Origin: an uncultured Planctomycetia bacterium
GTDB taxonomy: Bacteria > Omnitrophota > Gorgyraeia > 2-01-FULL-45-10
Direction of reading: 5' to 3'
DNA length: 64,000 nucleotides
Assembly (NCBI GenBank): GCA_964433975.1
Contig: CAYSSS010000001.1
Span: forward strand, 78,257-142,256
The notes below the pieces were generated by a model. That model was not told the origin of the DNA and made no database searches. It saw nothing but the letters and a program-made list of their open reading frames with translations. A program made the translations under genes and the position numbers. Positions 4,179 to 47,971 of this stretch are shown in pieces (the first letter of the stretch is position 1; every line of letters begins with the position of its first letter).

Positions 4179-5765
4179 TTATATTCTGGGAATATCGGCG
4201 TTCTATAATGATTCCGCCGCCGCGCTGCTTAAAGACGGCGAGATAATAGCTGCGGCCCAGGAAGAACGCTTTACGCGTAAAAAGCACGACCCAAGTTTTC
4301 CCAAAAATGCAATATCATATTGCTTGCGCGAAGCAGGTATCGGCAAGGCAGATCTTGATCTAATGGTATTTCATGATGGCAGCTATAAAAAAGACGTAAA
4401 AAAAAACTAAAATTTCGCGGCAAGCAGCTATTTTGCAAACATCACTACGCTCAGGCGGCAAGCGCTTTTTATCCGTCCCCATTCAATAAAGCCGCGATAC
4501 TTGTAGTTGATGGATCAAATGCTCAGGTAGCGGCAGCTTTTGGCAGTGGCACAGACAATTCAATAAAAATTCACTCCTCTATAAAATTCCCGAATTCCAT
4601 AGGGTTGCTATATTCCGTATTTACGCATTATTGCGGATTCAATCCCGATGCTGATGAGTATAAGTTAATGGGGTTGGCTCCTTATGGCAAGCCGGTTTAT
4701 GTTGACCTGATTATGGAGAAGCTTATTAAGCTGAGAATCGACGGTACTTATCGTATAAATTCGAATTACTTTACTTTCCGGGCGAAGCATAAAAAATCCA
4801 ATAAGAAGTTCACAGATCTCTTCGGCGGCCCCCCAAGAAAAAAAGATGACGAGATAGAAAAAAAACATAAGGACCTCGCGCGTTCTGTCCAAGCCGTCAC
4901 GGAGATTGCTTTGATGAACATGGTGAATCGCTTGTACGGGAAAACAAGGCTGGAAAACCTTTGTATGTCAGGTGAAGTGGCGCATAATTGCGTTGCGAAT
5001 GGTAGAATATTAAGGGAAGGGCCTTTTAAGAGGGTGTGGATACAGCCAGCGCCTTCCAGCGCTGGGTGCGCTCTCGGGGCAGCATTTTTAGGTTGGCATG
5101 AATACATGGGCAAGCTCCGAAAAGTCAGCAGGGCCAGAGATTTGCAGAAAGCGAGCCTTCTGGGCCCATCGTTCTCCGATGAAGAAATAGAAAGCTATTT
5201 AGAAGAAAATAATATAAAATATCAAAAATTGGCGAGAGCGGCCCTTTTAGCAAAAGTTGCCGGTTTTCTGGCTGACCAAAGAATAGTTGGGTGGTTCCAG
5301 GGCAGGATGGAGTTCGGCCCCCGCGCTCTGGGGAACCGTAGTATTCTGGCGGATCCCAGGTCAAAAGATATGCGCGATATTATTAATTCAAAAATCAAAT
5401 TCAGGGAAAGTTTCAGGCCATTTGCGCCAAGCGTGCTTCTGGAAAAATCACGGAACTTCTTTGATCTGGAATACGAAAGCCCATACATGCTTTTTGTGTC
5501 AACGGTTAAAAGGAGCGGATTTCCGGCCATAACACATGTTGACGGCTCAGCTAGGGTGCAAACAGTAAAGCATGAAGACAACCCTCTTTTTTATGATTTA
5601 ATAGGGCAGTTTTATAAAGACCACGGTTGCCCCATGGTTATAAATACATCTTTTAACAGGATGGGGGAGCCGATAGTCTGCACGCCTGAGGATGCTTACG
5701 GATGTTTTATGAATACCGAAATGGATTATTTAGTTATGGGTTCATTTATTATTGGAAAGGTTTAG
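4171..5765 (+). pseudogene. NodU/CmcH-family carbamoyltransferase split by a frameshift at an A9 homopolymer (4398-4406). It is either a phase-variable or inactivated gene, or a homopolymer sequencing error.
   Basis: ORF 4171-4410 encodes the family N-terminus (MPDYILGISAFYNDSAAALLKDGEIIAAAQEERFTRKKHD..DLDLMVFHDGS). The adjacent frame continues without a gap with LKFRGKQLFCKHHYAQAASAFYPSPFNKAAILVVDGS..EYKLMGLAPYGKP..., running into the annotated ORF 4605-5765, which carries the C-terminal NodU motifs (GRMEFGPRALGNRSIL, NTSFN). A single +1 change (A10) in the A-run would restore one ~530 aa ORF. Confidence 0.6.
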
Positions 5766-7491
5766 TATGAGAACAATAGAAAAAATTGTTGTCGCAGTAT
5801 TGCTTCTATCATTTCTAATAGGCGGATTATATTATGCCGCCACGAATTCCATAACGTCCGATGAAAAAACGCATATGGCGGTAGGGTATATGAACCTGCG
5901 CTTTCATGATTACAGGTTCAATATCGAGCATCCGCCTCTCGTTAAACAGCTCGCTGCGCTGCCGCTTTTATTCCTGAAGCTGAATTTTCCTTTTGATGTT
6001 TACAGCGTATCGGTCCCGGACGATATCGTAAAGATCCAGAACTTATTCCTGTTCAAGCTCGGGAACAACCTCGATTTTATGCTCTTTCTCTCCCGCATAC
6101 CGAATCTACTCATAGCCCTTATTTTAGGGTTCTTCATATACCTGTACTCAAGAAGGCTCAACGGCACATTCGCCGGGCTGATCTCATTGTCGTTATTCGT
6201 ATTCTCACCCATATTCTTAGCCCACTCCTCTTTGGTCACCATGGATACTACTATAACCTGCTTCTATTTCGCGGCTATCTATTTTTTGATGAGGTATTTT
6301 GAAACGGAAAAAGAGGGATTTTTGATCGGTGTGGCGCTCTTTACGGGATTAAGCTTTATGTCGAAGTTCAGCGGCCTGCTTTTGATACCGGTAATTTATT
6401 TACTTATTTTCATGAGGAGTTTATACCCGGTCCAGGAACCGAAAAAAATTACTTTGAAGAAGTGGATAGTAAACCTGGTCATATTTTTGCCTTTTCTGTT
6501 ATTTGCCGCATCTTATAAGAAGTCTTTCAGACTAATACTTCCGGCCCTCGCCATATACGCCATCTCTTATCTCTTTTATAACAAGAAGACTCTCTTCTCA
6601 AAGATAAATTTTGTAGGTAGGTCGCTACTCTTCATCATGGTAGTGGCGTTTGTCATGGTAATACTTGATTATACCGACTATTCATGGTTCCCGTTTCATA
6701 GCGCTACAAAGGCTTATTTCAAAGGCTTTGCCTATTTTGAGGGTCACGCGCAATATGGGCAGGAGTCTTATCTATTGGGGGCCAGCTCAAAGGCAACGGG
6801 GTGGTGGTATTATTTTCCTCTCGCTATTTTATTCAAGGAGCCATTTATTACCTCAATATTCCTCTTCCTGGGGGTAATAGGGTTATGCATAAAAAGAGAG
6901 AAGATATTAACTAAAGCCGTTCTTGTGATACCGGCTTTCGTATATCTTTTTATAGCGATGTTCATCAACAATTTGAACATAGGCATCCGCCATATATTGC
7001 CGGTATATCCGTTTTTGTTTGTCATGGCCGGTTACAGCGTATCCATTATAAGAAACTCCAGGGCGGTTAAATATCTTTTATCTCTGTTGGTCATAATATT
7101 AGCCGTGGATGTGCTAAGTTCGTATCCTGCCCATCTTTCGTATTTTAACAGACTGATAGGGGGGTATAAAGATGGTTATAAGTACCTTGGTGATTCAAAT
7201 ATAGCCTGGGGTCAGGACTGGAAGAGGTTAAAAGGATACGTTGAAAAGCATAATATAGCCACAATAGGTGCGGACGGAGCTTTCAGCTATGATAAAGTGT
7301 GCGATTATTATCGTATACCGTATAGGTATCTAACGAAAGATGAAGAATTGCGTCCGAGGGAAGGATATTATGTTATCGAGACTACCGCTTTCCCGGCCAA
7401 AAGAATAAAATGGCTGGATAAGATAAAGCCTGTTGAATGGGTGGGAGGATCCTTGCTGATATATAATATTACAAAGGAAGATGCCAAATGA
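5752..7491 (+). CDS. GT-C fold membrane glycosyltransferase, ArnT/PMT_2-like (polyprenyl-phosphate-sugar dependent).
   Basis: 579 aa polytopic. The first periplasmic loop has a D-E motif (ITSDEKTH) followed by HPPL (EHPPLVKQLAALPL), as in ArnT/PMT-family enzymes. It is a paralog of the 19538-21205 protein, sharing the C-terminal motif YFN..IGG...GYKYL.DSN..WGQD. Confidence 0.65.
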   Translation: MERFSMRTIEKIVVAVLLLSFLIGGLYYAATNSITSDEKTHMAVGYMNLRFHDYRFNIEHPPLVKQLAALPLLFLKLNFPFDVYSVSVPDDIVKIQNLFLFKLGNNLDFMLFLSRIPNLLIALILGFFIYLYSRRLNGTFAGLISLSLFVFSPIFLAHSSLVTMDTTITCFYFAAIYFLMRYFETEKEGFLIGVALFTGLSFMSKFSGLLLIPVIYLLIFMRSLYPVQEPKKITLKKWIVNLVIFLPFLLFAASYKKSFRLILPALAIYAISYLFYNKKTLFSKINFVGRSLLFIMVVAFVMVILDYTDYSWFPFHSATKAYFKGFAYFEGHAQYGQESYLLGASSKATGWWYYFPLAILFKEPFITSIFLFLGVIGLCIKREKILTKAVLVIPAFVYLFIAMFINNLNIGIRHILPVYPFLFVMAGYSVSIIRNSRAVKYLLSLLVIILAVDVLSSYPAHLSYFNRLIGGYKDGYKYLGDSNIAWGQDWKRLKGYVEKHNIATIGADGAFSYDKVCDYYRIPYRYLTKDEELRPREGYYVIETTAFPAKRIKWLDKIKPVEWVGGSLLIYNITKEDAK

Positions 7492-8795
7492 AGGTTTGTC
7501 TCATACATCCGCCGCAGCCCAATTCACTGGACGATAGGCTCGATATCCCGCTTGGGCAGCTATATCTGGCCACCGTGCTAAAGGAAGCGGGCTACGAAAC
7601 CAGGGTAGTTGACCTCTCTTCCGTGCCAATGGAGCGTTGGGCCGACCTCATCGGATGGGCGGATGTCTACGGCTTCACGGTGTATACTCCGTCGTATTAT
7701 ATATGCAAAGAGATACTGAAGCTTGCCAAGCAGAATAACCCCCGCGCCATAAGCGTCGCCGGAGGCGCGCATCCATCCGCTCTTCCGGAAGAGACTTTAA
7801 AAGATTTTGATTATGTAGTTATCGGCGAGGGGGAATTTGCCATGCGTGATCTAGTCGATAACTTAGCGAAGGCCAGGCCGATGGAGTCCAGGATCATCAG
7901 GTATCCTCTCATCGCGAATTTAGATGAACTGCCATATCCAGACCTTGACTTGATCGACATACATTCATACCATAGAAAGGTGGATGGTCAGCCGAGCTTG
8001 AGCTTTGTTACGAGCCGGGGGTGCCCCAATACGTGTGCGTTCTGCTGTAACTTCATGTTCGGCAAAAAGATCAGGTTCAGGCACCTTGATAACGTTGTCA
8101 ACGAGTTATCGTCGATAAAATCGAAATATGGCGTGAGGAATTTTATTTTTTATGACGATACGATGACCCTGGACAAAAACCGGGTTAAAGAGATGTCTGA
8201 GAAGTTTAAGCGGCTTGACATACGTTTCCGGGCTAATGGCACAGTAAAGGTGAATGATCCGGAAGTTTATGAGGATCTTTACGTCGCGGGCTGCAGGAAT
8301 ATCGCGTTTGGCGTTGAGACCGGCTCTCAGGAATTACTGCGCAAGATGAAGAAGCACACAACGGTAGACCAGATAAAAAAAGCTGTTAAAAACGCCAAGG
8401 CCGCCGGATTAATAGTTAAAGTATTCCTCATAGTCGGCTTTCCCGGAGAGACCTATCAGACCATACAGGAGACCGCCGATCTGATGCTTGAGTGCCGGCC
8501 GAACCAATATACGCTCTTTAACTTCGTCCCGTTTCCCGGCTGTGATGTTTGGCACAATCCCAAGAATTACGGCGTTACCTATTTTGAAAAGAACTACGAG
8601 CAGTACTTCAACATAGCCGGGTACCAGGAGGGAGGGCTCACGGTAGATACGGAGACTATGAAGAGGGCCGATGTCAAAGATATGAGGGAAAAACTGCTCG
8701 AATCCCTGTGCCGGTTAGACTGGTCCGGTGACGTACAGAATTACCAGTATAAGCTGCAACCTAAATACACCCCCCACACCCGCCAGTCCCCATAA
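7488..8795 (+). CDS. B12-binding-domain radical SAM enzyme (class B radical SAM, candidate C-methyltransferase).
   Basis: The N-terminus MKVCLIHPPQP...LATVLKEAGYE is typical of the cobalamin-binding domain. The CxxxCxxC cluster is at TSRGCPNTCAFCC. Length is 435 aa. Confidence 0.8.
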   Translation: MKVCLIHPPQPNSLDDRLDIPLGQLYLATVLKEAGYETRVVDLSSVPMERWADLIGWADVYGFTVYTPSYYICKEILKLAKQNNPRAISVAGGAHPSALPEETLKDFDYVVIGEGEFAMRDLVDNLAKARPMESRIIRYPLIANLDELPYPDLDLIDIHSYHRKVDGQPSLSFVTSRGCPNTCAFCCNFMFGKKIRFRHLDNVVNELSSIKSKYGVRNFIFYDDTMTLDKNRVKEMSEKFKRLDIRFRANGTVKVNDPEVYEDLYVAGCRNIAFGVETGSQELLRKMKKHTTVDQIKKAVKNAKAAGLIVKVFLIVGFPGETYQTIQETADLMLECRPNQYTLFNFVPFPGCDVWHNPKNYGVTYFEKNYEQYFNIAGYQEGGLTVDTETMKRADVKDMREKLLESLCRLDWSGDVQNYQYKLQPKYTPHTRQSP

Positions 8796-8868
8796 AACTA
8801 AATAATCCGTAGAAATACACTCCCCATAATGATATACTACTAGGCTACAAGCAAAGGAGACTAAGAAT

Positions 8869-9843
8869 ATGAAGAGAGCCGTTATAACGGGCATAACAGG
8901 CCAGGATGGATCATATATGGCCGAATTTTTGGTTAAAAAAGGCTATGAGGTTCATGGCCTGGTAAGGCGGGTTGCTCTGGAGGACCCGGAACACAGGCTG
9001 TGGAGAATAAGACACCTTTTAGGCAAGATCAAGATACACGCGGCTTCGCTCGAAAGCTACGCGAGTTTATTCAATATAATAGAAAAAATACAGCCGCACG
9101 AATGCTATCATCTGGCCGCCCAGACGTTTGTCAGCTATTCCTTCGAAGACGAATTCTCTACCATAAATACCAATATAAACGGCACTCACTATGTGCTGTC
9201 GGCTATAAAACAGAGAGCCCCTAAATGCAGGTTCTACTTCGCCGCTTCCAGCGAGATGTTCGGCAGCGTGAAAAAAACGCCGCAGAACGAGTTGACGCCT
9301 TTTCACCCGCGCTCCCCGTACGGTATTTCAAAACTTGCCGGGTTTGAGCTGACCAGAAATTATCGCGAAGCTTATAATCTATTTGCCTGCAATGGTATAT
9401 GTTTTAACCATGAAAGTCCGACCAGAGGGTTTGAGTTCGTTTCAAGAAAGATCTCGTACGCCGTAGCGGAGATAAAATTAGGCTTATCTAAAAAACTGCC
9501 TCTGGGGAACCTTAAAGCCAAGAGAGATTGGGGCTTCGCCGGCGATTATGTAAAAGCCATGTGGCTCATGCTGCAGAGCGATAGAGCGGACGATTATGTA
9601 GTCGCGACGGGTGAAACGCATACGGTCAGAGAATTCGCGGAACTTGCCTTCGATCATTTGAAACTTGACTGGAAAAAGTACGTGGTAATCGACAAGGAGC
9701 TGTACAGGCCCGCCGAGGTCAATATCCTGGAAGGGGATTACAGTAAGGCAAAAAAGGACCTGGGATGGAAACCTTTGATCAGGTTCCCGGAATTAGTCAA
9801 GATGATGGTGGATGCGGATCTGAAGCGGTTAAAAAGCAAGTAG
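8869..9843 (+). CDS. gmd: GDP-mannose 4,6-dehydratase.
   Basis: The N-terminus MKRAVITGITGQDGSYMAEFLVKKGYEVHGLVRR is the Gmd signature. An RBS, AAGGAG, lies 8 nt upstream. Confidence 0.85.
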   Translation: MKRAVITGITGQDGSYMAEFLVKKGYEVHGLVRRVALEDPEHRLWRIRHLLGKIKIHAASLESYASLFNIIEKIQPHECYHLAAQTFVSYSFEDEFSTINTNINGTHYVLSAIKQRAPKCRFYFAASSEMFGSVKKTPQNELTPFHPRSPYGISKLAGFELTRNYREAYNLFACNGICFNHESPTRGFEFVSRKISYAVAEIKLGLSKKLPLGNLKAKRDWGFAGDYVKAMWLMLQSDRADDYVVATGETHTVREFAELAFDHLKLDWKKYVVIDKELYRPAEVNILEGDYSKAKKDLGWKPLIRFPELVKMMVDADLKRLKSK

Positions 9844-9858
9844 AGAATCATATAAGAC

Positions 9859-10557
9859 ATGGTCTCCATAGTTTTACCGACCTATAATGAAAGCGAAAAC
9901 ATAGTAACTCTCATCGACGCGTTATCCCGCAATATAAAAGAGCCTCTCGAGGTGATCGTCGTAGATGACGACTCTCCCGACATGACCTGGAGGGTTGCCG
10001 AGGAGCACAAGGCTAACGGGGTAAGGGTTATCCGGCGCAATGAAAGAGGCTTGCCTTCGGCAATAGAGAGGGGCTTAAAAGAATCTAAAGGAGATATAGT
10101 GGGGTGGATGGACGCCGACATGAGCATGCCGGCATCCGCGCTGCCGGAGATGTTAAAGAGTCTCGATCAATATGATATTGCGATCGGGTCGAGGTATGCC
10201 CGAGGCGGTAAAGACGCCAGGGGGGCATTCAGAGTAGTAACGAGCAGGATAATAAATTGGTTCGCTCAAGTTATGCTCGGGTTCGATATAAGAGATTATG
10301 ACAGCGGTTTCATAGTATTTAAAAAGAATGTATTGCAGAAGGTCCCGTTTCCTTCCAAAGGCGGATACGGGGACTATTTTATAGAATTTGTTTTTAAATG
10401 CAAAAAAGCGGGATATAAAATAAAGGAGATTCCCTACACCTTTCAGGATAGAAAGAAGGGGACATCCAAAACCGCCGCCAGCCTTTCGGGATTCTTTACG
10501 CTGGGATTAGGGTATTTAAAACGGATAGTCCGCATAAGATTTGCCGGGTCAAAATAA
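9859..10557 (+). CDS. GT2 polyprenyl-phosphate sugar synthase (DPM1/ArnC/GtrB-like).
   Basis: IVLPTYNESENI and VVDDDSPD motifs. The protein is short (232 aa) and soluble-type, like Dpm1. Confidence 0.8.
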   Translation: MVSIVLPTYNESENIVTLIDALSRNIKEPLEVIVVDDDSPDMTWRVAEEHKANGVRVIRRNERGLPSAIERGLKESKGDIVGWMDADMSMPASALPEMLKSLDQYDIAIGSRYARGGKDARGAFRVVTSRIINWFAQVMLGFDIRDYDSGFIVFKKNVLQKVPFPSKGGYGDYFIEFVFKCKKAGYKIKEIPYTFQDRKKGTSKTAASLSGFFTLGLGYLKRIVRIRFAGSK

Positions 10558-10574
10558 TCCAAGGAGATACTGAC

Positions 10575-10991
10575 ATGGTCGAATATATAAAATCAAAGAA
10601 AGGCAGCCTGATAGCGATAATCATGCCTCAGCATATAGATACAAAGGGGGCCACATTCTTTACTCCTCCGGAATTTTCCCAGCAGGTGGGGTTATTAAGG
10701 CACCGCAAAGGGTCAAAAGTAAGACCGCATGTCCACAAGCTGGTGAAGAGAAGGATAGAGAGAACGCAGGAAGTCCTCCATATTAAAAAAGGCAAAGTCG
10801 CGGTCTTTTTGTATGACGAGAAAGAAAAGTACCTTGGAACGCGCCTACTGAAGAAAGGCGATACGATACTTCTGGCAAGCGGAGGCCATGGGATAGAGGT
10901 CCTGGAAAACAGCTTGATCCTCGAGATCAAGCAGGGCCCGTATGCCGGAGTGGATGACAAGGAATATTTAAAAGAGAAAAAGGCGCGATGA
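10575..10991 (+). CDS. Small cupin-fold protein, possibly an NDP-hexose ketoisomerase or epimerase (WxcM/FdtA/RmlC-like).
   Basis: 138 aa with cupin motifs (PHVHK...E....G and GDTILLASGGHGIEV). It sits between gmd and a DegT aminotransferase. I cannot resolve its function further from the sequence. Confidence 0.35.
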   Translation: MVEYIKSKKGSLIAIIMPQHIDTKGATFFTPPEFSQQVGLLRHRKGSKVRPHVHKLVKRRIERTQEVLHIKKGKVAVFLYDEKEKYLGTRLLKKGDTILLASGGHGIEVLENSLILEIKQGPYAGVDDKEYLKEKKAR

Positions 10992-12118
10992 TCCCCGTAA
11001 ACGAACCTTTAATAGGAAAAGAAGAGCTAAAAAATATCACCGATTGCGTGAAGTCCGGATGGATATCTTCGAAGGGGAGGTACATAAAAGAGTTTGAAGT
11101 GAAATTTGCCGAATTTTGCGGTGTCCGGTATGGTATTTCCACGACGAGTGGAACAACGGCGCTGCATCTTGCCCTTGCTTGTTTGGGGATAAGAAAAGGC
11201 GACGAAGTCATCATGCCCACCTTCACGATGATCGCGACAGCTTACGCCGTCATGTATCTTGGCGCCAAACCGGTATTTATCGACAGCGAAGAGAGGACAT
11301 GGAATATGGATGTGTCCAAGGTTGAAGAATCGATCAACCCCAAGACCAAAGTGCTGCTTCCCGTGCATATATACGGCCATCCTGTCGATATGGATCCCAT
11401 CATGGCCTTGGCAAAAAAACATGATCTTTTTGTAATAGAGGACGCCGCTGAGGCTCATGGCGCGAAATATAAGGGCAAGGTTTGCGGCTCGATGGGCGAT
11501 ATCAATTGTTTTTCGTTCTACGCGAACAAGGTGATAACGACGGGCGAGGGGGGTATGGTGGTTACCGATGACAAAAAATTATCCGAAAAGGCGAGGCTGC
11601 TGAAAGACCTTTCCCATTCCCCGAAACAGCGCTTTTTGCATACAGCGCTTGCTTATAACTATCGTATGACAAATATGCAGGCGGCGATAGGGCTTGCCCA
11701 GACCGAAAAGGCAAGAGCTCTTATTGAGAAAAAAAGGCGCATAGCCGGCCTCTATAATGATAACCTGAAAGATATTGAAGGGTTAAGATTGCCGATAGAG
11801 GAGAAGTGGGCGAAGAGCGTATACTGGATGTATTCAATTCTGGTTGAAAAAGATTTCGGACTGGATAGAGACCGATTTAGGTCAGAATTATTGAAAGAAG
11901 GGGTCGAGACGCGTTCATTCTTCGTTCCTATGCACCGGCAGCCGGTGATACAAAAGATGGGGCTCGCGGGCAAAAAGAGGAGATATCCCGTTTCCGATTA
12001 TATTTCCGACCATGGCCTCTATCTGCCTACCGGACTTGCTCTTAAACATAAAGATGTATTGCTTGTCTGCGAAAAGATAAGAAAGATACAGAAGAGATAT
12101 GCGTCCAGAACGCGATAA
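10988..12118 (+). CDS. DegT/DnrJ/EryC1/StrS-family PLP-dependent sugar aminotransferase (candidate GDP-perosamine synthase).
   Basis: PLP-lysine region FSFYANKVITTGEGGMVVTDD. Length 376 aa. Located downstream of gmd. Confidence 0.85.
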   Translation: MIPVNEPLIGKEELKNITDCVKSGWISSKGRYIKEFEVKFAEFCGVRYGISTTSGTTALHLALACLGIRKGDEVIMPTFTMIATAYAVMYLGAKPVFIDSEERTWNMDVSKVEESINPKTKVLLPVHIYGHPVDMDPIMALAKKHDLFVIEDAAEAHGAKYKGKVCGSMGDINCFSFYANKVITTGEGGMVVTDDKKLSEKARLLKDLSHSPKQRFLHTALAYNYRMTNMQAAIGLAQTEKARALIEKKRRIAGLYNDNLKDIEGLRLPIEEKWAKSVYWMYSILVEKDFGLDRDRFRSELLKEGVETRSFFVPMHRQPVIQKMGLAGKKRRYPVSDYISDHGLYLPTGLALKHKDVLLVCEKIRKIQKRYASRTR

Positions 12119-14929: not shown

Positions 14930-14931
14930 AT

Positions 14932-19534: not shown

Positions 19535-19537
19535 ATA

Positions 19538-21205
19538 ATGAAGATAAAAATATTTGTAATAATTCTACTGTCGATATTCGCCGTATTAACGATATCGAGT
19601 ATGCGGCAAAATTCGGCTACTTGCGACGAGATAGCGCATCATATACCCGTAGGATATGTTTTATTGAATAAATGGGATTTCAAGATGGATACATCGCAAC
19701 CGCCACTGCCGCGATATATAGTAGCTTTACCGTTGAAACTATTTATGAATATAAATATGCCCGATGACAGGGCTCTTTGGAGGGTGCAAGACCGGTCTAT
19801 TTTCGGCAGGGATTTTTTCTACAAATATAATCGTGATCAGATCAAGATGGTCTTTTTTGCCAGGATGGCCGTTGTTTTTATAGGTATGTTATGCGGTCTG
19901 CTGCTATTTATATGGGCAAAGTCACTTTGGGGCGAAAGAGCCGCTCTATTTAGCCTGTTTTTTTACGCTCTTTCTCCAAATATATTGGCTCATGCCGGTC
20001 TTGCCACCACTGATATGGTAGCGACGTTTTTTATACTCCTCTCTTGTTATTCATTCTGGCTCTTCCTGAAGAATGCTTCAATCACAAATATCATATTCGC
20101 GGCTGTCTGTCTTGGGCTGGCTGAGCTCTCTAAATACACGGCCATCCTGCTTTATCCGATATTCTTACTGTCATTGCGAGGAGTCCCGCCGAAGACCCTC
20201 GACCTCGCCGAGAGGCGAGCGGGACGACGAAGCAATCCCACAATTTCAAAGTTCCTGTCCGTTATCTTTTTATCTTTGATCGTTGTGTGGGCCGCCTATG
20301 GATTTGAATTTCAACCATTACTTAAAGATTCGATGCGCCTCGATGAAAAACTTCAGATCGCACACAATATCGCTAAAAAAGTATACCCGCATATCAGCCC
20401 GGCGGCAATTGACCGCCTGGACGATTTTTTACTGAAGGTCCCGGTGCCGTTGGGCAGCCACATTCTCGGGATAATGGGCGTGTTTCGTCACGGTTACGAA
20501 GGGCATAGTACTTATTTTTTGGGGAGGTGGTCAAGTCACGGCGATCCGCTCTATTTTTTAGTCGCTTTTTTGATAAAGACACCCATACCGCTAATCATTT
20601 TTTTGCTCATTGGTATTTTCATATTTTTGAAGCAGAGATCGCAGATGGGAGAGAGGTTTATTTTTATCGTAGCGGCCGTATTCTTTGTGGCGTCATCTTT
20701 AAGCGGGCTGAAGTTGGGGTTAAGGCACATATTGCCCCTTTACCCGTTCTGTTTCATGATATGCGGCGGTGCCGTAGTGCTATTGAAGAAGAAATATGTT
20801 AATATACTATTGTATAGTCTAATGGCATGGTATGCGTTTATATCGGTCAAAACATGGCCGCATTATTTGGGCTACTTTAATGAAGCGATAGGCGGTCCGG
20901 CAAACGGATATAAATACCTCAGGGATTCAAACGTTGATTGGGGGCAGGACCTGCCGTCACTATCGCGGTATATGGAGAAAAACGGTATAAAAGAGATAGC
21001 GCTTGAATATTTCGGACAGGCGGACCCGGTTGTTTACGGCGTTCATTACAGAAAGTTTATGCCGGATGAATTTGAAAAGCCGCATGACGCGGTTTATGCC
21101 GTAAGCGCCCAATATCTGGAGGGTGTCAAATGGACGAAGGATCATAAACCTGCGGCAGCCGCAGGCTATTCTATATTTATCTATGATTTTGCCAAGGAAA
21201 AATAG
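19538..21205 (+). CDS. GT-C fold membrane glycosyltransferase, ArnT/PMT_2-like. It is a paralog of 5752-7491 and carries an in-frame hairpin repeat insertion.
   Basis: ATCDEIAHHIPVGY...QPPLPRYIVALPL, and the C-terminal YFNEAIGGPANGYKYLRDSNVDWGQD, shared with the 5752 gene. Confidence 0.65.
   Translation: MKIKIFVIILLSIFAVLTISSMRQNSATCDEIAHHIPVGYVLLNKWDFKMDTSQPPLPRYIVALPLKLFMNINMPDDRALWRVQDRSIFGRDFFYKYNRDQIKMVFFARMAVVFIGMLCGLLLFIWAKSLWGERAALFSLFFYALSPNILAHAGLATTDMVATFFILLSCYSFWLFLKNASITNIIFAAVCLGLAELSKYTAILLYPIFLLSLRGVPPKTLDLAERRAGRRSNPTISKFLSVIFLSLIVVWAAYGFEFQPLLKDSMRLDEKLQIAHNIAKKVYPHISPAAIDRLDDFLLKVPVPLGSHILGIMGVFRHGYEGHSTYFLGRWSSHGDPLYFLVAFLIKTPIPLIIFLLIGIFIFLKQRSQMGERFIFIVAAVFFVASSLSGLKLGLRHILPLYPFCFMICGGAVVLLKKKYVNILLYSLMAWYAFISVKTWPHYLGYFNEAIGGPANGYKYLRDSNVDWGQDLPSLSRYMEKNGIKEIALEYFGQADPVVYGVHYRKFMPDEFEKPHDAVYAVSAQYLEGVKWTKDHKPAAAAGYSIFIYDFAKEK
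20170..20237 (+). repeat. Small MITE/RPE-like palindromic element inserted in-frame in a GT-C gene (copy 2, the longer variant).
   Basis: gtcattgcgaggagtcccgccgaagaccctcgacctcgccgagaggcgagcgggacgacgaagcaatc. It has the same 22 bp and 17 bp termini as copy 1. Relative to the element it is read in a different frame (SLRGVPP... versus HCEESRR...). Confidence 0.7.
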
Positions 21206-21229
21206 GAGAGAAATAGATCAGGCTATTTT

Positions 21230-22804
21230 ATGAAGATATTGCTGATATATCCTAATAAAACGATGACTACCCGCATACCTATAGGGATAGGTTATTTAAT
21301 CGCTTACTTGAAACATGCGGGGCATGAAATAGATATTTTTGATACGACTTTCATGGATTGCGGCAGCGGAGTAAGCGATGATAATTTGCGCGCCGCTTCA
21401 CTTCAAGTGCGTAACCCTGATTTCGCTCAATATAATCTGGTTACAAAAAAAACTGATATAACGAATGAATTATACGAAAAAGTAGAAGTTTTTAAGCCTG
21501 ATATAGTCGCGGTAAGTGTGGTCGACCCAAACTATCGCTTTGGTTTAGTGCTAGCAAAAAAAATAAAAGAAATAAATAAAAATATTTTTGTAATTTTTGG
21601 CGGTCCTACTGCTACATTTTCTCCCGAAGAGGTGATCATAGAAGATGTTGTCGACGCGATTTGTGTGGGCGAAGGAGAGCAGGCCTTGCCCGAATTATGT
21701 GCCGCTATTGAGAAAGGCTGGGAAATAAAGAATATAAAAAATATTTGGTGTAAGGAGAAGGGGGGTATTTATCGTAATGATGTCCGTCCATTGATCGATC
21801 TGGATACGCTTCTGCCTCCGGACTGGAGCATGTTCGATGAGCGTCACCTTATACGCCCTTTTGGCGGCAAGATGTACCGCATGGGTGTTTTTGCCATTAC
21901 CAGGGGGTGTCTGTTCCGATGTACGTATTGCGCTAATTTTGCCTTGTCAAGTATTTACAAAGGAAAAGGATCCCTTTATCGTATTCAGGACCCGGAAAAG
22001 ATGGTAAACCAAATAGCGGAGTTTAAGCACCGTTATAATTTAAACTTTGTTTTTTTTGTAGATGATATTTTCCCATTACATAAGCCGGATGTTTTAGATA
22101 AATTTTGCTCGCTCTATAAAGAAAAAGTACGCCTTCCGTTTAATGTCAGTTTGCATGCCGAGCTTGTCAATGAAGCACAGTTTGCTAAGCTGGTTGATGC
22201 GGGATGCCGTAACGTTTGTTTAGGTTTAGAATCGGGCAGTCCCAGGATAAGAGAAGCGATCTTTGATCGAAAATGCAGCGATGCCCAGATTATAGAGGCT
22301 TTCCGTCTGGCGCATAAATATAAAATACGAAGTTCGACATTTAATATTATCGGCATACCCGGAGAGTCCAGAAAAGATATTTTTCAAACCATTGATTTAA
22401 ATCGCAAGGCAAACCCCGCCACCGCTACCCTTACTTTTTTACATCCTTATCGCGGCACTAAAGTCAGAGATATTTGCATAAAAGAATCAATATTTGATAT
22501 TGGTAAAGAAAAGGAGCATGAGGACGGTTACCGGACAGATTCTTGTTTAAATCTCAAAAATATTTCCGCCAAAGAATTAAAAGGTATTTTTAAAACATTC
22601 CAGATGTATTTGAAAATGCCAAAAATATGCTACATTTTTATACGTCTGGCCGAAGGCGAATCAATTTTTTCTAAAATAATTTTTTCTTTTTTAAAGAAGA
22701 TATTTTACTGTATTACCTACAAAGAAGCGGTATGGGATTTTAGTAATGATCTTGCATTTTCTTCGAATAATTATGATAAATCGGCAGAAGGAACCCAAAA
22801 ATGA
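21230..22804 (+). CDS. B12-binding-domain radical SAM enzyme.
   Basis: N-terminus MKILLIYPNK...IGYLIAYLKHAGHE. CxxxCxxC at ITRGCLFRCTYCAN. 524 aa. Confidence 0.8.
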   Translation: MKILLIYPNKTMTTRIPIGIGYLIAYLKHAGHEIDIFDTTFMDCGSGVSDDNLRAASLQVRNPDFAQYNLVTKKTDITNELYEKVEVFKPDIVAVSVVDPNYRFGLVLAKKIKEINKNIFVIFGGPTATFSPEEVIIEDVVDAICVGEGEQALPELCAAIEKGWEIKNIKNIWCKEKGGIYRNDVRPLIDLDTLLPPDWSMFDERHLIRPFGGKMYRMGVFAITRGCLFRCTYCANFALSSIYKGKGSLYRIQDPEKMVNQIAEFKHRYNLNFVFFVDDIFPLHKPDVLDKFCSLYKEKVRLPFNVSLHAELVNEAQFAKLVDAGCRNVCLGLESGSPRIREAIFDRKCSDAQIIEAFRLAHKYKIRSSTFNIIGIPGESRKDIFQTIDLNRKANPATATLTFLHPYRGTKVRDICIKESIFDIGKEKEHEDGYRTDSCLNLKNISAKELKGIFKTFQMYLKMPKICYIFIRLAEGESIFSKIIFSFLKKIFYCITYKEAVWDFSNDLAFSSNNYDKSAEGTQK

Positions 22805-23532
22805 GCGAGAGTATCCTTTTAACAATTGTTATACCGGCTTATAACGAAGAAAGAACCATTGGCAATACGCTTGAAGAAATAGCCGGTTATTTGGATAAGA
22901 GAGGCTTTTCTTATGAAATGATCGTTGTGGACGACGGATCTACAGACGGGACGTTTGAAAACGCTCAAAGTTGCGCAAAGCTTTTCGGTGATTTGAAAGT
23001 TTTGAAAAATAATATCAACATGGGCAAGGGTTATTCGGTAAAAAGGGGCATTCTTTCCGCGCGCGGGGAATATACGCTTTTCATGGATGCGGACAATTCC
23101 ACGTCAATCTATGAATTTGACAAATTCTTACCTTATCTTAAAGACAGGTGCGATGTGGTGATCGCTTCAAGGCGTCTAAAAAATTCAGACGTTAAAGAGC
23201 CGCAGCCGTTCTTAAGAGCAATCATGGGATTATTCTATATAATCCTGTCAAAGATCATGCTGGGCATGCAGATCAACGATTTCAATTGCGGATTTAAAGC
23301 ATACCTGAGCAAGGCGGCAAAGTTTTTATGCGAAAAACAAAAAATGGATGACTGGAGCTTTGATACGGAGCTATTATTTATCGCAAAAAAGCATGGTTTC
23401 AGGATAAAAGAGGTGCCTGTCAGATGGGTCCATAAAAGCGGCTCCAAGGTAAACCCCTTCAAGGACGGCGTAGGATCTTTCCTGAGCCTTATAAAAATAA
23501 AACGGAACGATACAAGTCGCAAATATGACTAA
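22801..23532 (+). CDS. GT2 polyprenyl-phosphate sugar synthase (DPM1-like).
   Basis: IVIPAYNEERTIGNTL and VVDDGSTDGT motifs. 243 aa. Confidence 0.8.
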   Translation: MSESILLTIVIPAYNEERTIGNTLEEIAGYLDKRGFSYEMIVVDDGSTDGTFENAQSCAKLFGDLKVLKNNINMGKGYSVKRGILSARGEYTLFMDADNSTSIYEFDKFLPYLKDRCDVVIASRRLKNSDVKEPQPFLRAIMGLFYIILSKIMLGMQINDFNCGFKAYLSKAAKFLCEKQKMDDWSFDTELLFIAKKHGFRIKEVPVRWVHKSGSKVNPFKDGVGSFLSLIKIKRNDTSRKYD

Positions 23533-25576
23533 GCATAAGAGCAGGGAAAATTGCCTGATATATTTAGCCGACCTCGTGCATAATTATGCCTCGAAGGGCC
23601 CTTATACCTTCCCCATTAATATAGGGTATCTGGCTTCTTACGCAAAGAAACTATACGGTGGTAAAGTCCGGATAAAACTTTTTAAATTCCCGCTTGATTT
23701 AATAAATGCTATAAAAAAACAGAGGCCCGACATCGTTGCCCTCAGCAATTATACCTGGAACATAGATATCAACAATAAAATAATTTCCTGGGTCAAAGCG
23801 GCTTACGAAGGCATAGTAACGGTATTCGGCGGCCCGGATTACCCTGTTACATACGGGGAATCGCTGGATTATTTGAAAAGAACCAAAGACCTTGATTTTT
23901 ACGTCCTTCAGCAGGGCGAAAAAGGCTTTGTCAATATTATTCAAAGATATTTTGAAAGCCCGTCTTTAAACGATATGAAGGAAAAAGTATTGGAAAATTG
24001 CTCTTTTTATAATAGGCGCACGGGCAAGCTTGTTGTTTCTGAGAGGTATAATTGGATAGAGGATATAGGAGAAATACCGTCTCCATATCTGACAGGTGTC
24101 CTGGATGATTTTTTCAAGGATAATCTCATACCGTTAATCGAGACTAACAGGGGCTGTCCTTATTCATGTATTTATTGCGCATGGGGCAAAGCGAGCCAAA
24201 AAAAAGTATTTCGGTTTCCGGCCAAAAGAATAAAGGAAGAGCTTGAATATATCTCAAAAAAAATAGACAATGTCAGTCTTCTTATGATAGCGGATGCGAA
24301 TTTTGGAATATTCGAGAGCGACGCGGATATCGCTAAATTTTTGAAGCATGTCAACAGGAAGTACGGATATCCTAAAGATATTAATCTTACATGGGCGAAG
24401 ACCAATCCTAATCGTGTCGTTAAAATCGCAGAGATATTGGGTGACATGATCAGCGCATCCAGCGCTTTCGGATCATTTCAGACTACAGACCCGGAGGTAA
24501 TGGCTAATATCAAGAGGACAAATTTTACCCTGGAGCAATTTAAAAAAATTCAGGATGTCTTTATTAAAAAAAATATTTCCACGTCCTCAGAATTAATACT
24601 GGCACTGCCGGGCGAAACCAAAAAATCGCATTTGAACGGCTTAAAAGAAATGTTTGAATGCGATACCAACGCTATAGTTAACTACAATTTGCGTCTTTTA
24701 GGCGGGAGCGAATTGAACACAGCCGCAAGCAGGGAAAGATTCGGTATTAAGACAAAATTTAGGCTGATAGACGGCGGATTCGGCAAGTATGGTGACATCC
24801 TTTCTATAGAAAGCGAAGAGATGGTGCTCGGCAATAATACTATGTCCATGGATGATATTCTGTATTTCAGGCCGGCGCATTTTCTGATACAATTTTTATG
24901 GAATTACGGATATTATAAAGAGCCGCTATTCTATCTGAAATCGAAAGAGATTAATCCCATCGATCTTATAATTTCTTTGATCGAAAATAGAAAAAAAGCA
25001 CCCTTATCCATAAAAACAATCCTGGATGACTTCATAAATGAATCATATGGTGAGTGGTTTGACTCAAAGGAGGGGCTATTTAAGCACTACGCCATGCCGG
25101 ATAATTTTGAAAAGTTGAAAAAAGGCGGCTTTGGCAAACTGAACTATAAGTATACATACAAAATATTATTAGAGCGAAAAAATGATTTTGACGAATATCT
25201 ATATGGCATGCTGCGGAATATGCTTGAGGCAAGGAGGCCGGTAACATCCGATGTCAAAGAACAGATAGATGATTTATTTAGCTATACCCGCAATATATTC
25301 ATAGATTTCGAAGATCTTGTTAATGATCGTACCGAGGACAAGGTGATAGGACTTAGATATGATATTTTGGCATGGAAAAAAGAACGCTATAAAAAGGCGT
25401 TGGGAGAATTTAAGTCTGCCGGCCTAAAATTAAGATTTTACCTGCCTGAAGAACAGGCGCTGGCTCTGAAAAAGCTTTGTTTGCAATTTCAGGGGATAGA
25501 TCTCAACCAGACCTTGCGAAAGATGTCGGAATATATCAACGAAAAAGACCTCACTAATAAAGTAGACTACGCATAA
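23525..25576 (+). CDS. Large B12-binding-domain radical SAM enzyme.
   Basis: CxxxCxxC at ETNRGCPYSCIYCAW. The N-terminal region before the cluster is consistent with a cobalamin-binding domain. 683 aa, with a long C-terminal extension. Confidence 0.75.
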   Translation: MTKHKSRENCLIYLADLVHNYASKGPYTFPINIGYLASYAKKLYGGKVRIKLFKFPLDLINAIKKQRPDIVALSNYTWNIDINNKIISWVKAAYEGIVTVFGGPDYPVTYGESLDYLKRTKDLDFYVLQQGEKGFVNIIQRYFESPSLNDMKEKVLENCSFYNRRTGKLVVSERYNWIEDIGEIPSPYLTGVLDDFFKDNLIPLIETNRGCPYSCIYCAWGKASQKKVFRFPAKRIKEELEYISKKIDNVSLLMIADANFGIFESDADIAKFLKHVNRKYGYPKDINLTWAKTNPNRVVKIAEILGDMISASSAFGSFQTTDPEVMANIKRTNFTLEQFKKIQDVFIKKNISTSSELILALPGETKKSHLNGLKEMFECDTNAIVNYNLRLLGGSELNTAASRERFGIKTKFRLIDGGFGKYGDILSIESEEMVLGNNTMSMDDILYFRPAHFLIQFLWNYGYYKEPLFYLKSKEINPIDLIISLIENRKKAPLSIKTILDDFINESYGEWFDSKEGLFKHYAMPDNFEKLKKGGFGKLNYKYTYKILLERKNDFDEYLYGMLRNMLEARRPVTSDVKEQIDDLFSYTRNIFIDFEDLVNDRTEDKVIGLRYDILAWKKERYKKALGEFKSAGLKLRFYLPEEQALALKKLCLQFQGIDLNQTLRKMSEYINEKDLTNKVDYA

Positions 25577-25807
25577 TCACCCCATCCTAATGATAACGAA
25601 TAACTAGTAATGATTTTTGTTGCATTCATAGCGATATGGGGTAAACTGTGAGGCAGCGATAACGTCAAATAACGCTTGACTTCGCATAATGTTTCTATAA
25701 AATGCTATATACGGTTGACAAGCTTATCAAAATTTAGAGGCATACCGGTTGTAAAAATTGAGGACTGTCATTTGATTAAACAAGAAAAATCGACAAAAGG
25801 ATAGAAT

Positions 25808-26539
25808 ATGAAATTAAACTTAACATCCATAAACAACAGGCTAAAATCCTGTTTGGCAAGAATCTTATCGAACATACAGATTAAGCATAAGATACCCGTA
25901 AACAATGGCTATGTATATTTGAATGATGGCTGCTTCCTGGACGCCTACAAGGCAGAAACATTCATGGTGGACTGGATAAACTCAATAGGCGGTGGTGTAG
26001 TTTACGACATAGGCGCGAATGTAGGAACCTATTCGATCCTTTTGGCGAAGAAATGCAAAGTATACTCCATAGAACCCTCCATAAAAACGCTTAATATACT
26101 ACAGAAAAATCTCGTATCTAACAACGTGTTTGACAAGGTAACCATACTACCTTTCGCGGTATCCGATAGCTGTAAAGTACAGAAATATGGCCATTATGCT
26201 ACGGTTGTTAATATTGACGCAAGAGGATATACCGAAGATTCTAAATACTTCACGGACAGAAAAATGACGCAAACCCACGATCTATTGTCGTTTGACCTCG
26301 ATACATTAGTCAAATTATTTAATCTCCCATATCCTGACTATATAAAAATTGACGTAGACGGCGCCGAACTTAACGTATTAAAAGGCGCCAAGGAAACTAT
26401 GAAGCATGCCAAGGTTATGATAGTAGAAATAAATGACAAAGAGGCGCTAAGCCTATTAAAGGATTTCTCGGTTACACGGTTGACCAATTACGATAACGAA
26501 CATGACTATTATCTATGCAAAAACAAACAAGTAGAATGA
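25808..26539 (+). CDS. FkbM-family SAM-dependent methyltransferase.
   Basis: VYDIGANVGTYSILLAKKC motif I, typical of the Methyltransf_21/FkbM family. 243 aa. An RBS, AAAGGA, lies upstream. It is preceded by a 231 bp intergenic gap. Confidence 0.75.
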   Translation: MKLNLTSINNRLKSCLARILSNIQIKHKIPVNNGYVYLNDGCFLDAYKAETFMVDWINSIGGGVVYDIGANVGTYSILLAKKCKVYSIEPSIKTLNILQKNLVSNNVFDKVTILPFAVSDSCKVQKYGHYATVVNIDARGYTEDSKYFTDRKMTQTHDLLSFDLDTLVKLFNLPYPDYIKIDVDGAELNVLKGAKETMKHAKVMIVEINDKEALSLLKDFSVTRLTNYDNEHDYYLCKNKQVE

Positions 26540-26789: not shown

Positions 26790-26812
26790 AAGTCAAAAAG
26801 AAAGGTGTGATC

Positions 26813-27052
26813 ATGGAAATAAACCCGCATGAGGTGTACACCACCGAAGAGGCTCAGCGCATTCTTAAGATAAGCCCTTCTACTACAATGAGGCTGATTA
26901 AGAAAGGGATGATACGAACTGCTAAGGTCGGCAAACAATATCGTATTCTTGGTAAGGAGCTATTGAGGGTGGTCTCTCCTAAGCTTGAGGATAAGGTTGG
27001 CAGGATCTATAATAAAGGACGGAAGTGGGTCCACGAGGGCATTGAGGAGTAA
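26813..27052 (+). CDS. Small helix-turn-helix DNA-binding protein (excisionase/MerR-like HTH_17 family). Putative transcriptional regulator.
   Basis: EVYTTEEAQRILKISPSTTMRLIKKGMIRTAKVGKQYRILGKELL matches the excisionase-family HTH pattern. The six-frame track starts at the GTG at 26807, but the ATG at 26813 has the better RBS. Confidence 0.65.
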   Translation: MEINPHEVYTTEEAQRILKISPSTTMRLIKKGMIRTAKVGKQYRILGKELLRVVSPKLEDKVGRIYNKGRKWVHEGIEE

Positions 27053-27060: not shown

Positions 27061-28044
27061 ATGTCTAAAGTCTTGATTACCGGCGGTGCCGGATACATAG
27101 GATCTGTTATGAGTAATTTTTTTCTACTGAACGGATACGATGTAAAAGTGGCAGACCTGCTATGGTTTAAAAAAGATGCGCCTTCTCTTTATCGGGGCAA
27201 CCCGCGATACTCGTTTGTTAAGGGCGACATATGCGACGCTGCTTTTAGAGATAGCCTTTTAGAAGATATAGATTTTGTGGTCCATGCCGCGGCGGTTGTA
27301 GGCGATCCCGCAAGCAAAAAATTTCCGGATTTAACATATAAGATCAATTACGAAGCCTCTATTAAACTTATCGATAAAGCGAGAAATTCCAGCGTAAAAG
27401 GTTTTATATTTCTTTCGACATGCTCAAATTATGGTATTTCGGAAGGCCTGGCAAATGAAGAATCGCCCCTTAAGCCGCTCTCTCTGTACGCCGAGACCAA
27501 GGTTGACGTGGAGCGGTACCTGATAGACAAGGTTAGCGACCTGGATTGGGTTATTTGCAGGCTGTCTACTGTGTACGGAGTATCACCAAGAATGAGGTTT
27601 GATCTCACGGTGAATGATTTCGTATTAAATGCTCTTACCACTAAATACCTCAATATATTCCTGCCTTATACATACAGGCCATATATACATGTTTCTGACG
27701 CGGGCCGGGTAATTTCGGAGATTGTAAAAAAATTTGATAAAACAAAAAGAAATATTTTTAATATAGGCTTTGATGGCGAGAATTACCAGAAGATAGAGAT
27801 CGCAAACGCGATCTCCGGATTTATCCCGGACGTCAAGATCAGCGTTACGGAGAAGGGCGCCGATAGCAGGGACTACCAGGTTGATTTTTCTAAACTGCAA
27901 AAATATGTAGATTTAAAAAATTCCTTCAGAGTGGAAAGTGGCATCAAGGAAGTCCTGGGTTTGTTGAATTCCGGCAAAATTACGGATCCTAAAGAGGATA
28001 TTTATTATAACACCTCACCGGACACAGGAGGTCTAACGGGATGA
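27061..28044 (+). CDS. NAD-dependent epimerase/dehydratase (SDR). Candidate LegB/PseB-type NDP-HexNAc 4,6-dehydratase.
   Basis: ITGGAGYIGS Rossmann motif and the YAETK catalytic Y-x-x-x-K. It is first in a nonulosonic-acid gene set. Confidence 0.7.
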   Translation: MSKVLITGGAGYIGSVMSNFFLLNGYDVKVADLLWFKKDAPSLYRGNPRYSFVKGDICDAAFRDSLLEDIDFVVHAAAVVGDPASKKFPDLTYKINYEASIKLIDKARNSSVKGFIFLSTCSNYGISEGLANEESPLKPLSLYAETKVDVERYLIDKVSDLDWVICRLSTVYGVSPRMRFDLTVNDFVLNALTTKYLNIFLPYTYRPYIHVSDAGRVISEIVKKFDKTKRNIFNIGFDGENYQKIEIANAISGFIPDVKISVTEKGADSRDYQVDFSKLQKYVDLKNSFRVESGIKEVLGLLNSGKITDPKEDIYYNTSPDTGGLTG

Positions 28045-29132: not shown

Positions 29133-29134
29133 AG

Positions 29135-34371: not shown

Positions 34372-34402
34372 TGAATCCCGGACTAAAAAGAGAGGAAGGA
34401 AT

Positions 34403-45635: not shown

Positions 45636-45658
45636 GCAGCAAGAACACGAGGAGAATC

Positions 45659-46270: not shown

Positions 46271-46277
46271 AGCCGGG

Positions 46278-47968: not shown

Positions 47969-47971
47969 AGA

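Follow-up and report, generated by a model that had tools for sequence, protein, structure and literature searches.

The stretch of DNA analysed here, referred to as the window, covers 64,000 nucleotides of contig CAYSSS010000001.1 (positions 78,257 to 142,256 of the forward strand; assembly GCA_964433975.1) from an uncultured bacterium of the phylum Omnitrophota. According to Pfam and NCBIfam scans of all large open reading frames (ORFs), it is one continuous, single-strand surface-glycan locus of more than 60 kb, which confirms throughout the window the glycan setting given in the original prediction, an earlier note made from the sequence alone. The locus contains four genes for class-B, or cobalamin (B12)-type, radical S-adenosylmethionine (SAM) enzymes, which we name rSAM1 to rSAM4, as well as two FkbM-family methyltransferase genes and, between rSAM2 and rSAM3, a gene for a small glycosyltransferase (GT):

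7488..8795, + strand: rSAM1, 435 amino acids (aa), with B12-binding and radical SAM domains and the motif C179xxxC183xxC186; its family is separate from those of the other three
21230..22804, + strand: rSAM2, 524 aa, class-B radical SAM protein and paralogue of rSAM4; its stop codon overlaps the GT2_c start
22801..23532, + strand: GT2_c, small Dpm1/AglJ/PpgS-like GT2 of the polyprenyl-phosphate sugar synthase type (Pfam, NCBIfam), overlapping rSAM2 by 4 bp and rSAM3 by 8 bp
23525..25576, + strand: rSAM3, 683 aa, TokK/ThnK/CysS-type cobalamin radical SAM protein with a third domain at the C-terminus
25808..26539, + strand: FkbM_A, FkbM-family SAM methyltransferase (PF05050), 232 bp downstream of rSAM3
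41594..43090, + strand: rSAM4, 498 aa, class-B radical SAM protein of a highly conserved family, with extra invariant cysteines C147, C159 and C419
43087..43824, + strand: FkbM_B, FkbM-family methyltransferase (PF05050), overlapping rSAM4 by 4 bp

The B12-type N-terminus and the single CxxxCxxC motif originally assigned to these four ORFs were found in all of them by Pfam and motif scans, the motif starting at C179, C227, C211 and C229 in rSAM1 to rSAM4, respectively. In the same order, the B12-binding domain (PF02310; cutoff 32.1 bits) scores 71.4, 63.5, 34.3 (marginal) and 45.9 bits, and the Radical_SAM domain (PF04055; cutoff 29.5 bits) 102.6, 89.1, 37.8 and 77.5 bits, so that both domains are present above cutoff in each protein; the outcome named in the original prediction as its refutation, a missing B12-binding domain, did not occur. 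The N-terminal signature M-K-x-x-L-I-Y/H-P, also originally ascribed to all four, is exact in rSAM1 (MKVCLIHP) and rSAM2 (MKILLIYP), whereas rSAM3 (MTKHKSRENCLIYL) and rSAM4 (MKGSDFKVLFIYPN) deviate from it. rSAM2 and rSAM4 share 35% identity along their whole length, rSAM1 shares about 25% with each of them and rSAM3 about 21% with the rest; by sequence, the four ORFs split into three families, namely rSAM1, rSAM2 with rSAM4, and rSAM3.

rSAM3 is the sole protein of the four with specific support as a C-methyltransferase, based on its structural relatives, its best family model and two tryptophan residues. In a phmmer search, its relatives in the PDB were TokK (E 2e-48 over residues 66-470) and CysS (E 3e-46), and no others; the similarity is full-length and extends past the radical SAM domain. 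Its best NCBIfam model is that of the KedN5-family methylcobalamin C-methyltransferases, with 199.7 bits against an unreached cutoff of 700, which makes rSAM3 a distant relative outside the curated family. TokK W76, below the corrin, and W215, between cobalamin and the cluster, have their aligned counterparts in W78 (YTWN) and W220 (CAWG) of rSAM3; both residues are common to TokK, ThnK and CysS, sequential methylases that fall in one network node, and both are absent from TsrM, Fom3, PhpK and GenK (10.1101/2021.07.10.451909). W78 is conserved in 32 of 32 members of the rSAM3 family. rSAM3 is therefore predicted to be a C-methyltransferase, possibly an iterative one, with the caveat that ThnL, which is also a B12 radical SAM enzyme and belongs to the carbapenem pathway too, reportedly makes a thioether (PMC9407657).

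The sugar on which rSAM3 might act is suggested by its surroundings. The gene lies 1.5 kb upstream of a nonulosonic-acid operon, and this region has the following features:

26807..27052, + strand: HTH_17 small DNA-binding ORF (Pfam, E 2.8e-12), directly upstream of the nonulosonic-acid operon
27061..36231, + strand: legionaminic-type nonulosonic-acid operon (Pfam, NCBIfam)
36228..39553, + strand: 615-aa candidate nonulosonate transferase (weak match to TIGR04331, LIC12162, E 5e-4), followed by a Wzx-type flippase (Pfam)

The operon encodes a dehydratase/epimerase, a LegC-family aminotransferase, a NeuD-family acetyltransferase, a NeuB synthase, a NeuC-type hydrolysing 2-epimerase, a HisF/HisH fusion and WbuX (acetamidino formation), a PtmE-like CBS-nucleotidyltransferase and a cytidine monophosphate (CMP)-nonulosonate synthetase. 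NeuB (496 bits), NeuC (429), NeuD (200) and WbuX (345) score above their NCBIfam cutoffs, and LegC (411 versus 420 bits) and the PseF-like synthetase (177 versus 206 bits) just below; judged by these enzyme types, the legionaminic-type pathway is complete. The 615-aa protein (36228-38075) showed no BLAST likeness to the roughly 620-aa proteins encoded beside rSAM3 and rSAM4 homologues. A sigma-70-like site, matching at 11 of 12 positions, lies at 26761-26789, upstream of the HTH_17 ORF.

The same association recurs among rSAM3 homologues, of which 3694 were found at E<=1e-10; among the matches listed, the best are 40-58% identical and come from Omnitrophota, bacteria of the candidate phyla radiation (CPR), Nitrospirota, Chloroflexota and DPANN archaea. 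Five of the six gene contexts inspected at 42% identity or more are nonulosonic-acid loci of the legionaminic or pseudaminic type, with NeuB, CMP synthetase, NeuC, DegT, PglD or PIG-L. In one of these, from an Omnitrophota genome (L104), an rSAM3 orthologue of 56% identity starts 4 bp after a CMP-nonulosonate synthetase gene, whose product is 49% identical to that of window 35479-36231; the genes there run NeuB, B12 radical SAM, CMP synthetase, rSAM3 orthologue, LIC12162-family transferase, WbuX, HisH, HisF and Wzx, the same gene set as in window 27061-39553. Two rSAM3-like proteins are natural fusions, one with a CTP_transf_3 cytidylyltransferase (P0353) and the other with a CBS domain and a NAD-dependent sugar dehydratase (P0311). 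The cytidylyltransferase fusion, together with the position of the L104 orthologue between CMP synthetase and transferase genes, suggests a CMP-activated sugar as the substrate of rSAM3. L104 also carries an HTH_17 ORF (5690-5929) and, at its edge (20935-22043), a Fom1-like fusion of a phosphoenolpyruvate (PEP) mutase with a nucleotidyltransferase, which hints at a phosphonate decoration of the same glycan.

More distant relatives were collected by scanning metagenomes with an alignment of the rSAM3 family, which gave 80 further loci at 26-42% identity (the best-scoring matches and not a random sample). These were compared with all window proteins by tblastn, a comparison in which only homologues of window genes are visible. 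NeuB or CMP synthetase was found in 11 of the 80 loci, in seven of them within 400 bp of the radical SAM gene, and a DegT aminotransferase in 13 of the 43 loci of at least 8 kb; two unrelated genes of the window, RtcB and a thymidylate-kinase-like gene (TMK), had no tblastn match in the 80 loci. A plasmid search for relatives in cultured organisms returned proteins of at most 31% identity, located in an Azospirillum radical SAM/carbamoyltransferase cluster, in clusters of the nonribosomal peptide synthetase (NRPS) type and in a thienamycin-producing organism, and these tell little about the window. The best of them (31%) is encoded on an Azospirillum oryzae plasmid (NZ_CP054615.1, 219408-244955), where the cluster around it comprises three more radical SAM genes as well as genes for two carbamoyltransferases, a GNAT, methyltransferases and an SGNH hydrolase.

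The other three radical SAM genes also have sugar-active neighbours, which in the window are:

5752..7491, + strand: PMT_2 (ArnT/GT-C type) membrane glycosyltransferase (Pfam); its stop codon overlaps the rSAM1 start, and it adjoins the rSAM1 orthologue in L001 too
8869..12118, + strand: guanosine diphosphate (GDP)-mannose-derived amino-deoxyhexose module downstream of rSAM1, with Gmd, a small Dpm1-like GT2, a 138-aa ORF of unknown family and a LegC/Per-like aminotransferase
19538..21205, + strand: PMT_2 GT-C glycosyltransferase (Pfam), directly upstream of rSAM2
40833..41594, + strand: HpcH/HpaI-family class II pyruvate aldolase (Pfam E 1e-36; HpaI/GarL-like below cutoffs), whose base 41594 is shared with the rSAM4 start
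43829..48766, + strand: second activated-sugar module, with a KdsB-type cytidylyltransferase, a GFO/IDH/MocA oxidoreductase, a GmhA-like SIS isomerase, a 2-hydroxyacid dehydrogenase resembling phosphoglycerate dehydrogenase (PGDH), an IMPase-family phosphatase and a class I methyltransferase

Gmd scores 391 bits with TIGR01472 (cutoff 415) and KdsB 298 bits with NF009905, above the cutoff of 255. rSAM1 has a syntenic orthologue of 85% identity in another metagenome-assembled genome (L001), where the module at 8869..12118 is also syntenic. A 50% homologue (L002) lies amid glycosyltransferases, deoxythymidine diphosphate (dTDP)-rhamnose genes and a TylF methyltransferase, a 44% homologue (L005) is not in any glycan locus, and one rSAM1-like relative is fused to a GT2 domain, which is unlike any GT2 of the window and so supports a glycan link in general terms only. 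For rSAM2, a large and diffuse family was retrieved (3012 cluster representatives at E<=1e-30), with one close representative of 61% identity; three giant proteins of 2096-2331 aa (P0402, P0468, P0487) contain four rSAM2-like stretches each and are thus tandem B12 radical SAM modules.

The rSAM4 family, with more than 120 homologues at 62-69% identity from Nealsonbacteria, Omnitrophota, Dehalococcoidia, Dissulfurispira and Smithellaceae, is unusually strongly conserved across very distant phyla. In contigs of Dehalococcoidales and Smithellaceae/Geobacteraceae (L012-L017), its members have recurring partners in cytidylyltransferase/surface-carbohydrate modules: a CTP_transf_3 protein (68% identical between two loci), a radical SAM-SPASM protein of about 330 aa, a PGDH-like dehydrogenase, a HAD phosphatase and a NAD epimerase, with class I methyltransferases directly upstream and a TIGR04326 'surface carbohydrate biosynthesis' protein directly downstream. 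Cytidylyltransferase, dehydrogenase, phosphatase and methyltransferase types are common to these loci and the window. Both the rSAM2 and the rSAM4 families have three invariant cysteines outside CxxxCxxC (C147, C159 and C419 in rSAM4) and an invariant histidine (H432), which together may form an extra metal site. The SPASM protein (about 330-400 aa) has no counterpart in the window and recurs in L012 (2783-3802), L015 (6021-7007), L020 (2880-3854), L018 (5514-6638) and L104 (19712-20932), all of them loci of the nonulosonic-acid or cytidylyltransferase kind; its gene directly adjoins a CTP_transf_3 gene in L012, L015 and L020. Phase-variable genes annotated as radical SAM proteins of the MoaA/NifB/PqqE/SkfB family have also been described in Campylobacter fetus, beside methyltransferase, short-chain dehydrogenase/reductase and formyltransferase genes (PMC6321876). 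Within 20 kb, L018 has five B12 radical SAM genes plus two radical SAM genes of other types, and L015 and L104 have three B12 radical SAM genes each; loci rich in such genes are therefore not unique to the window.

From domains, family placement, neighbourhoods and gene fusions we infer, with moderate confidence, that the four proteins are real class-B enzymes of three families that tailor the sugars of this locus, and that rSAM3 likely methylates a legionaminic-type nonulosonic acid. The reading with the best support is thus a single likely C-methylation, on a sialic-acid-like sugar; the original prediction missed that the sugar relevant to rSAM3 is probably the legionaminic-type nonulosonic acid of the neighbouring operon. 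By analogy with the TokK/ThnK/CysS family, rSAM3 would cleave SAM reductively to generate a 5'-deoxyadenosyl radical, which would take a hydrogen atom from the substrate at an unactivated sp3 carbon; a methyl radical would then come from methyl-cobalamin, and a second SAM would re-methylate the cobalamin, possibly in repeated rounds. The likeliest substrate would be the nucleotide-activated legionaminic-type nonulosonic acid produced by the downstream operon. rSAM4, acting with FkbM_B, the KdsB-type cytidylyltransferase and the aldolase, and rSAM2 are predicted to introduce a radical modification into a second CMP-activated acidic sugar or its acyl substituent, and rSAM1 is predicted to modify the GDP-mannose-derived amino-deoxyhexose, which would be passed via polyprenyl phosphate (by a GT2) to a GT-C transferase.

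A number of observations weigh against this reading, and one group of them concerns the chemistry. None of the four proteins reaches an NCBIfam trusted cutoff; the best scores with the BchE, HpnJ, PhpK, HpnR, QCMT and ladderane-type models are at most 145 bits against cutoffs of 360-650, those with the TsrM model at most 46 bits, and the AprD4 model (NF033070; cutoff 500) gives 82, 48, 22 and 76 bits for rSAM1 to rSAM4, its alignment covering the radical SAM half only. Cobalamin binding by the four enzymes is itself a prediction, and AprD4 and ArsL homologues have a similar domain without cobalamin (PMC12931638). BchE, HpnJ and OxsB share the architecture and do not methylate, and according to a 2026 review neither sequence nor structure tells the non-methylating members apart from those that alkylate (PMC12931638). 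For rSAM1, rSAM2 and rSAM4, the NCBIfam scores are near-ties, far below the cutoffs, of HpnJ and BchE (non-methylating or unknown chemistry), PhpK (a methylase), ApyD and a ladderane-type lipid enzyme, and their PDB matches are near-ties between AprD4 and the methylase MgmA/QCMT (9CCB). As AlphaFold2 models, rSAM1 and rSAM4 can be superposed on TsrM, MgmA, CysS, TokK and OxsB; for rSAM4 (mean predicted local distance difference test score 92), Foldseek returned TsrM, MgmA, AprD4, OxsB, CysS and TokK, all with template modelling scores of 0.60-0.68, and the best match of rSAM1 is AprD4, by a small margin over MgmA; the likeness of rSAM1 to AprD4 in fold is high and not specific.

rSAM1, rSAM2 and rSAM4 might not be methyltransferases at all: whether or not cobalamin takes part, they could employ the 5'-deoxyadenosyl radical in another sugar transformation, such as an AprD4-like 1,2-diol dehydration leading to deoxygenation, epimerisation, ring contraction or C-C bond formation, an alternative that we regard as somewhat improbable. 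Against it, the cobalamin domains of the PhpK, BchE, HpnR and QCMT models can be aligned with their N-terminal halves, and the N-domain of the rSAM1 model, searched by itself, matches domains that bind corrinoids. According to the review, C-methyltransferases occur in every group that has a characterised member (PMC12931638). C-methylation is the likeliest single chemistry predicted for these three. Since sequence and predicted fold leave methylases and AprD4/BchE/HpnJ-type enzymes inseparable here, four C-methylations are not established, and the multiply C-methylated sugars originally foreseen shrink to the one step likely carried out by rSAM3. The step from class-B architecture to C-methyltransferase is justified for rSAM3, with its TokK/CysS relatives, KedN5 model and both tryptophans, and not for the other three, whose scores for methylating and non-methylating families nearly tie.

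The remaining points against a methylated nonulosonic acid concern the family and its context. The position of W220 is occupied by tryptophan in 18 of the 32 rSAM3-family members and by glutamine in the other 14; the two fusions (P0353, P0311) indicate different stages of a pathway; the sixth of the close contexts, an archaeal contig with a 58% homologue of rSAM3 (L102), has no glycan neighbours; and rSAM4 of the window stands with an HpcH aldolase and a KdsB-type enzyme, as opposed to the SPASM protein and other cytidylyltransferase of its homologues. In addition, rSAM3 shares 8 bp with GT2_c, whereas the way to the legionaminic operon leads across FkbM_A, a gap of 520 bp and the HTH gene, which means that its substrate could be the sugar of GT2_c. 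Together with rSAM2, it would then modify the hexose handled by GT2_c and the upstream GT-C transferase, a nucleotide- or polyprenyl-phosphate-linked sugar added on the outer face. The overlapping stop and start codons of rSAM2, GT2_c and rSAM3, the cassette-like 22-26 kb block with its GC content of 0.38, the promoter-like site and HTH gene between this block and the operon, and the small GT2 homologues near rSAM3 relatives in three loci (L024, L050, L059) all speak for such a hexose; we nevertheless consider it unlikely, as the genes linked with the closer rSAM3 relatives (42-56% identity) are those for NeuB and CMP synthetase and not for GT2, and two of these relatives are fused to enzymes of nonulosonic-acid pathways. 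It is very improbable that the substrates are not sugars but, for example, a peptide, membrane lipids or the polyprenyl carrier, and that the enzymes are in the locus by coincidence, even though B12 radical SAM enzymes are known to modify hopanoids and archaeal lipids, the L005 and L102 homologues lie outside glycan loci and the distant plasmid-borne rSAM3 relatives are in NRPS-type clusters, because the reading frames overlap glycosyltransferase and methyltransferase genes, and conserved glycan neighbourhoods and fusions with sugar enzymes are found in three independent families.

Both FkbM proteins are real members of their family (TIGR01444, cutoff 37.7 bits: FkbM_A 92.3, FkbM_B 94.3 bits) and are 33% identical to each other. 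They had been described as immediately following their radical SAM genes, which is true of FkbM_B with its 4-bp overlap; FkbM_A is merely adjacent to rSAM3 because of the 232-bp gap, in which no terminator-like site was found. FkbM pairing was rejected as a conserved feature, being present in one of the 80 related loci. FkbM_A would add an O- or N-methyl group, and, more speculatively, the carbon of this methyl group could be the one alkylated by rSAM3, after the precedent of CysS (methyl ether extension).

Nonulosonic acids, including sialic, legionaminic and pseudaminic acid, are key surface determinants in immune evasion, phage recognition and motility, and their known diversity consists of N-acyl and O-substituents introduced by conventional enzymes; to our knowledge, C-C bond formation at unactivated positions is unreported for nonulosonic acids or any other cell-surface glycan. 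A full-text literature search for radical SAM enzymes linked to nonulosonic, pseudaminic or legionaminic acid, O-antigen or the Leptospira rfb locus found no relevant description and no joint mention of nonulosonic and radical SAM, and it was fair to call such tailoring rarely described. What would be new is the use of a TokK/CysS-type enzyme in nonulosonic-acid biosynthesis, while the proteins themselves are new members of the known class-B radical SAM superfamily. Tentatively, and with some doubt, we extend this to a widespread, undescribed TokK/CysS-type family that would C-alkylate nucleotide-activated nonulosonic acids, either iteratively or by extending a methyl group installed by a partner, to give branched or homologated nonulosonic acids on uncultured Omnitrophota, CPR bacteria, Chloroflexota and DPANN archaea, with the rSAM2/rSAM4 family and its extra invariant cysteines carrying out a further radical step, of another kind, on acidic sugars linked to CMP. 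If true, a cobalamin radical SAM step would add C-C bonds at unactivated positions of nonulosonic acids, and surface-glycan composition would hinge on cobalamin supply in CPR and DPANN lineages, which largely rely on partner organisms for nutrients. It would also give a biological role to sizeable groups, as yet uncharacterised, within the B12 radical SAM family, a family of about 84,000 sequences in more than 100 mostly unexplored groups (PMC12931638).

Elsewhere in the window, a PglF-like dehydratase and a Wzy_C/O-antigen-ligase-like protein are encoded (Pfam/NCBIfam), and the membrane transferases of GT-C type number seven in all (five PMT_2, one GT87-like and one YfhO; 5752-21205 and 55738-57306). 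Three small Dpm1/ArnC/AglJ-like GT2s accompany the GT-C genes, and this unusual density of GT-C genes with small GT2s implies several outer-face sugar additions from polyprenyl-phosphate donors. The GC content is 0.38-0.39 over 22000-26000 (the rSAM2 3' end, GT2_c, rSAM3 and FkbM_A) against 0.40-0.47 elsewhere, and this block may be a horizontally acquired cassette. A NodU/CmcH-type carbamoyltransferase is split at 4172-5765: its N-terminal piece of 79 codons ends just past a run of nine A (4398-4406), the remainder is ORF 4605-5765 in another frame, and removal of one A would give a fused protein of about 531 aa. The L001 orthologue is also short (365 aa), and the split could mean that the tract is phase-variable, that the gene is a pseudogene or that the assembly is wrong here. 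A papain-family gene (Peptidase_C1; 3366-4178), 86% identical in L001, separates Wzy_C from the carbamoyltransferase, and the RtcB RNA ligase and thymidylate-kinase-like genes (52677-54801) stand amid glycosyltransferases in the same strand run. The window contains no tRNA genes.

Several characterised systems bear comparison with this locus. AprD4, a radical SAM 1,2-diol dehydratase acting on an amino sugar (C3' deoxygenation of apramycin), has a degenerate, cobalamin-free N-domain and resembles the window enzymes in the radical SAM domain only, whereas their N-domains are good B12-binding matches. MgmA/QCMT, the methyl-coenzyme M reductase (MCR) glutamine C-methyltransferase from methanogens, has a protein substrate, and its model TIGR04014 gives 103 bits against a cutoff of 360. 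All enzyme types of the legionaminic pathway of Campylobacter and Legionella (LegB, C, H, G, I and F; PtmE), together with WbuX, HisH and HisF, are encoded in 27061-36231; in the known pathways, a cobalamin radical SAM enzyme was not found within the literature searched.

The closest parallels to rSAM3 are TokK and ThnK, which alkylate C6 of carbapenems, and CysS, which extends an alkoxy group of cystobactamid; the three-domain layout is the same at nearly the same length (683 versus 681 aa), though identity is only about 30%. They belong to antibiotic clusters and, in the case of TokK and CysS, act on pantetheinylated substrates, whereas rSAM3 lies in a cell-surface glycan/nonulosonic-acid locus and the fusions of its family point to a nucleotide-activated sugar. 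The logic of a cobalamin radical SAM enzyme methylating an unactivated carbon is shared with Fom3, GenK, GenD1, Fms7 and MoeK5, the last four of which act on aminoglycoside or moenomycin sugars (PMC12931638). Fom3 and GenK are without the two tryptophans according to the TokK paper (10.1101/2021.07.10.451909), and the products of these enzymes are secondary metabolites rather than surface glycans. P0353, in which an rSAM3 relative is joined to a cytidylyltransferase, recalls the Fom1/Fom3 arrangement of fosfomycin synthesis, and the cytidylylated 2-hydroxyethylphosphonate on which Fom3 acts would parallel the CMP-sugar proposed for rSAM3.

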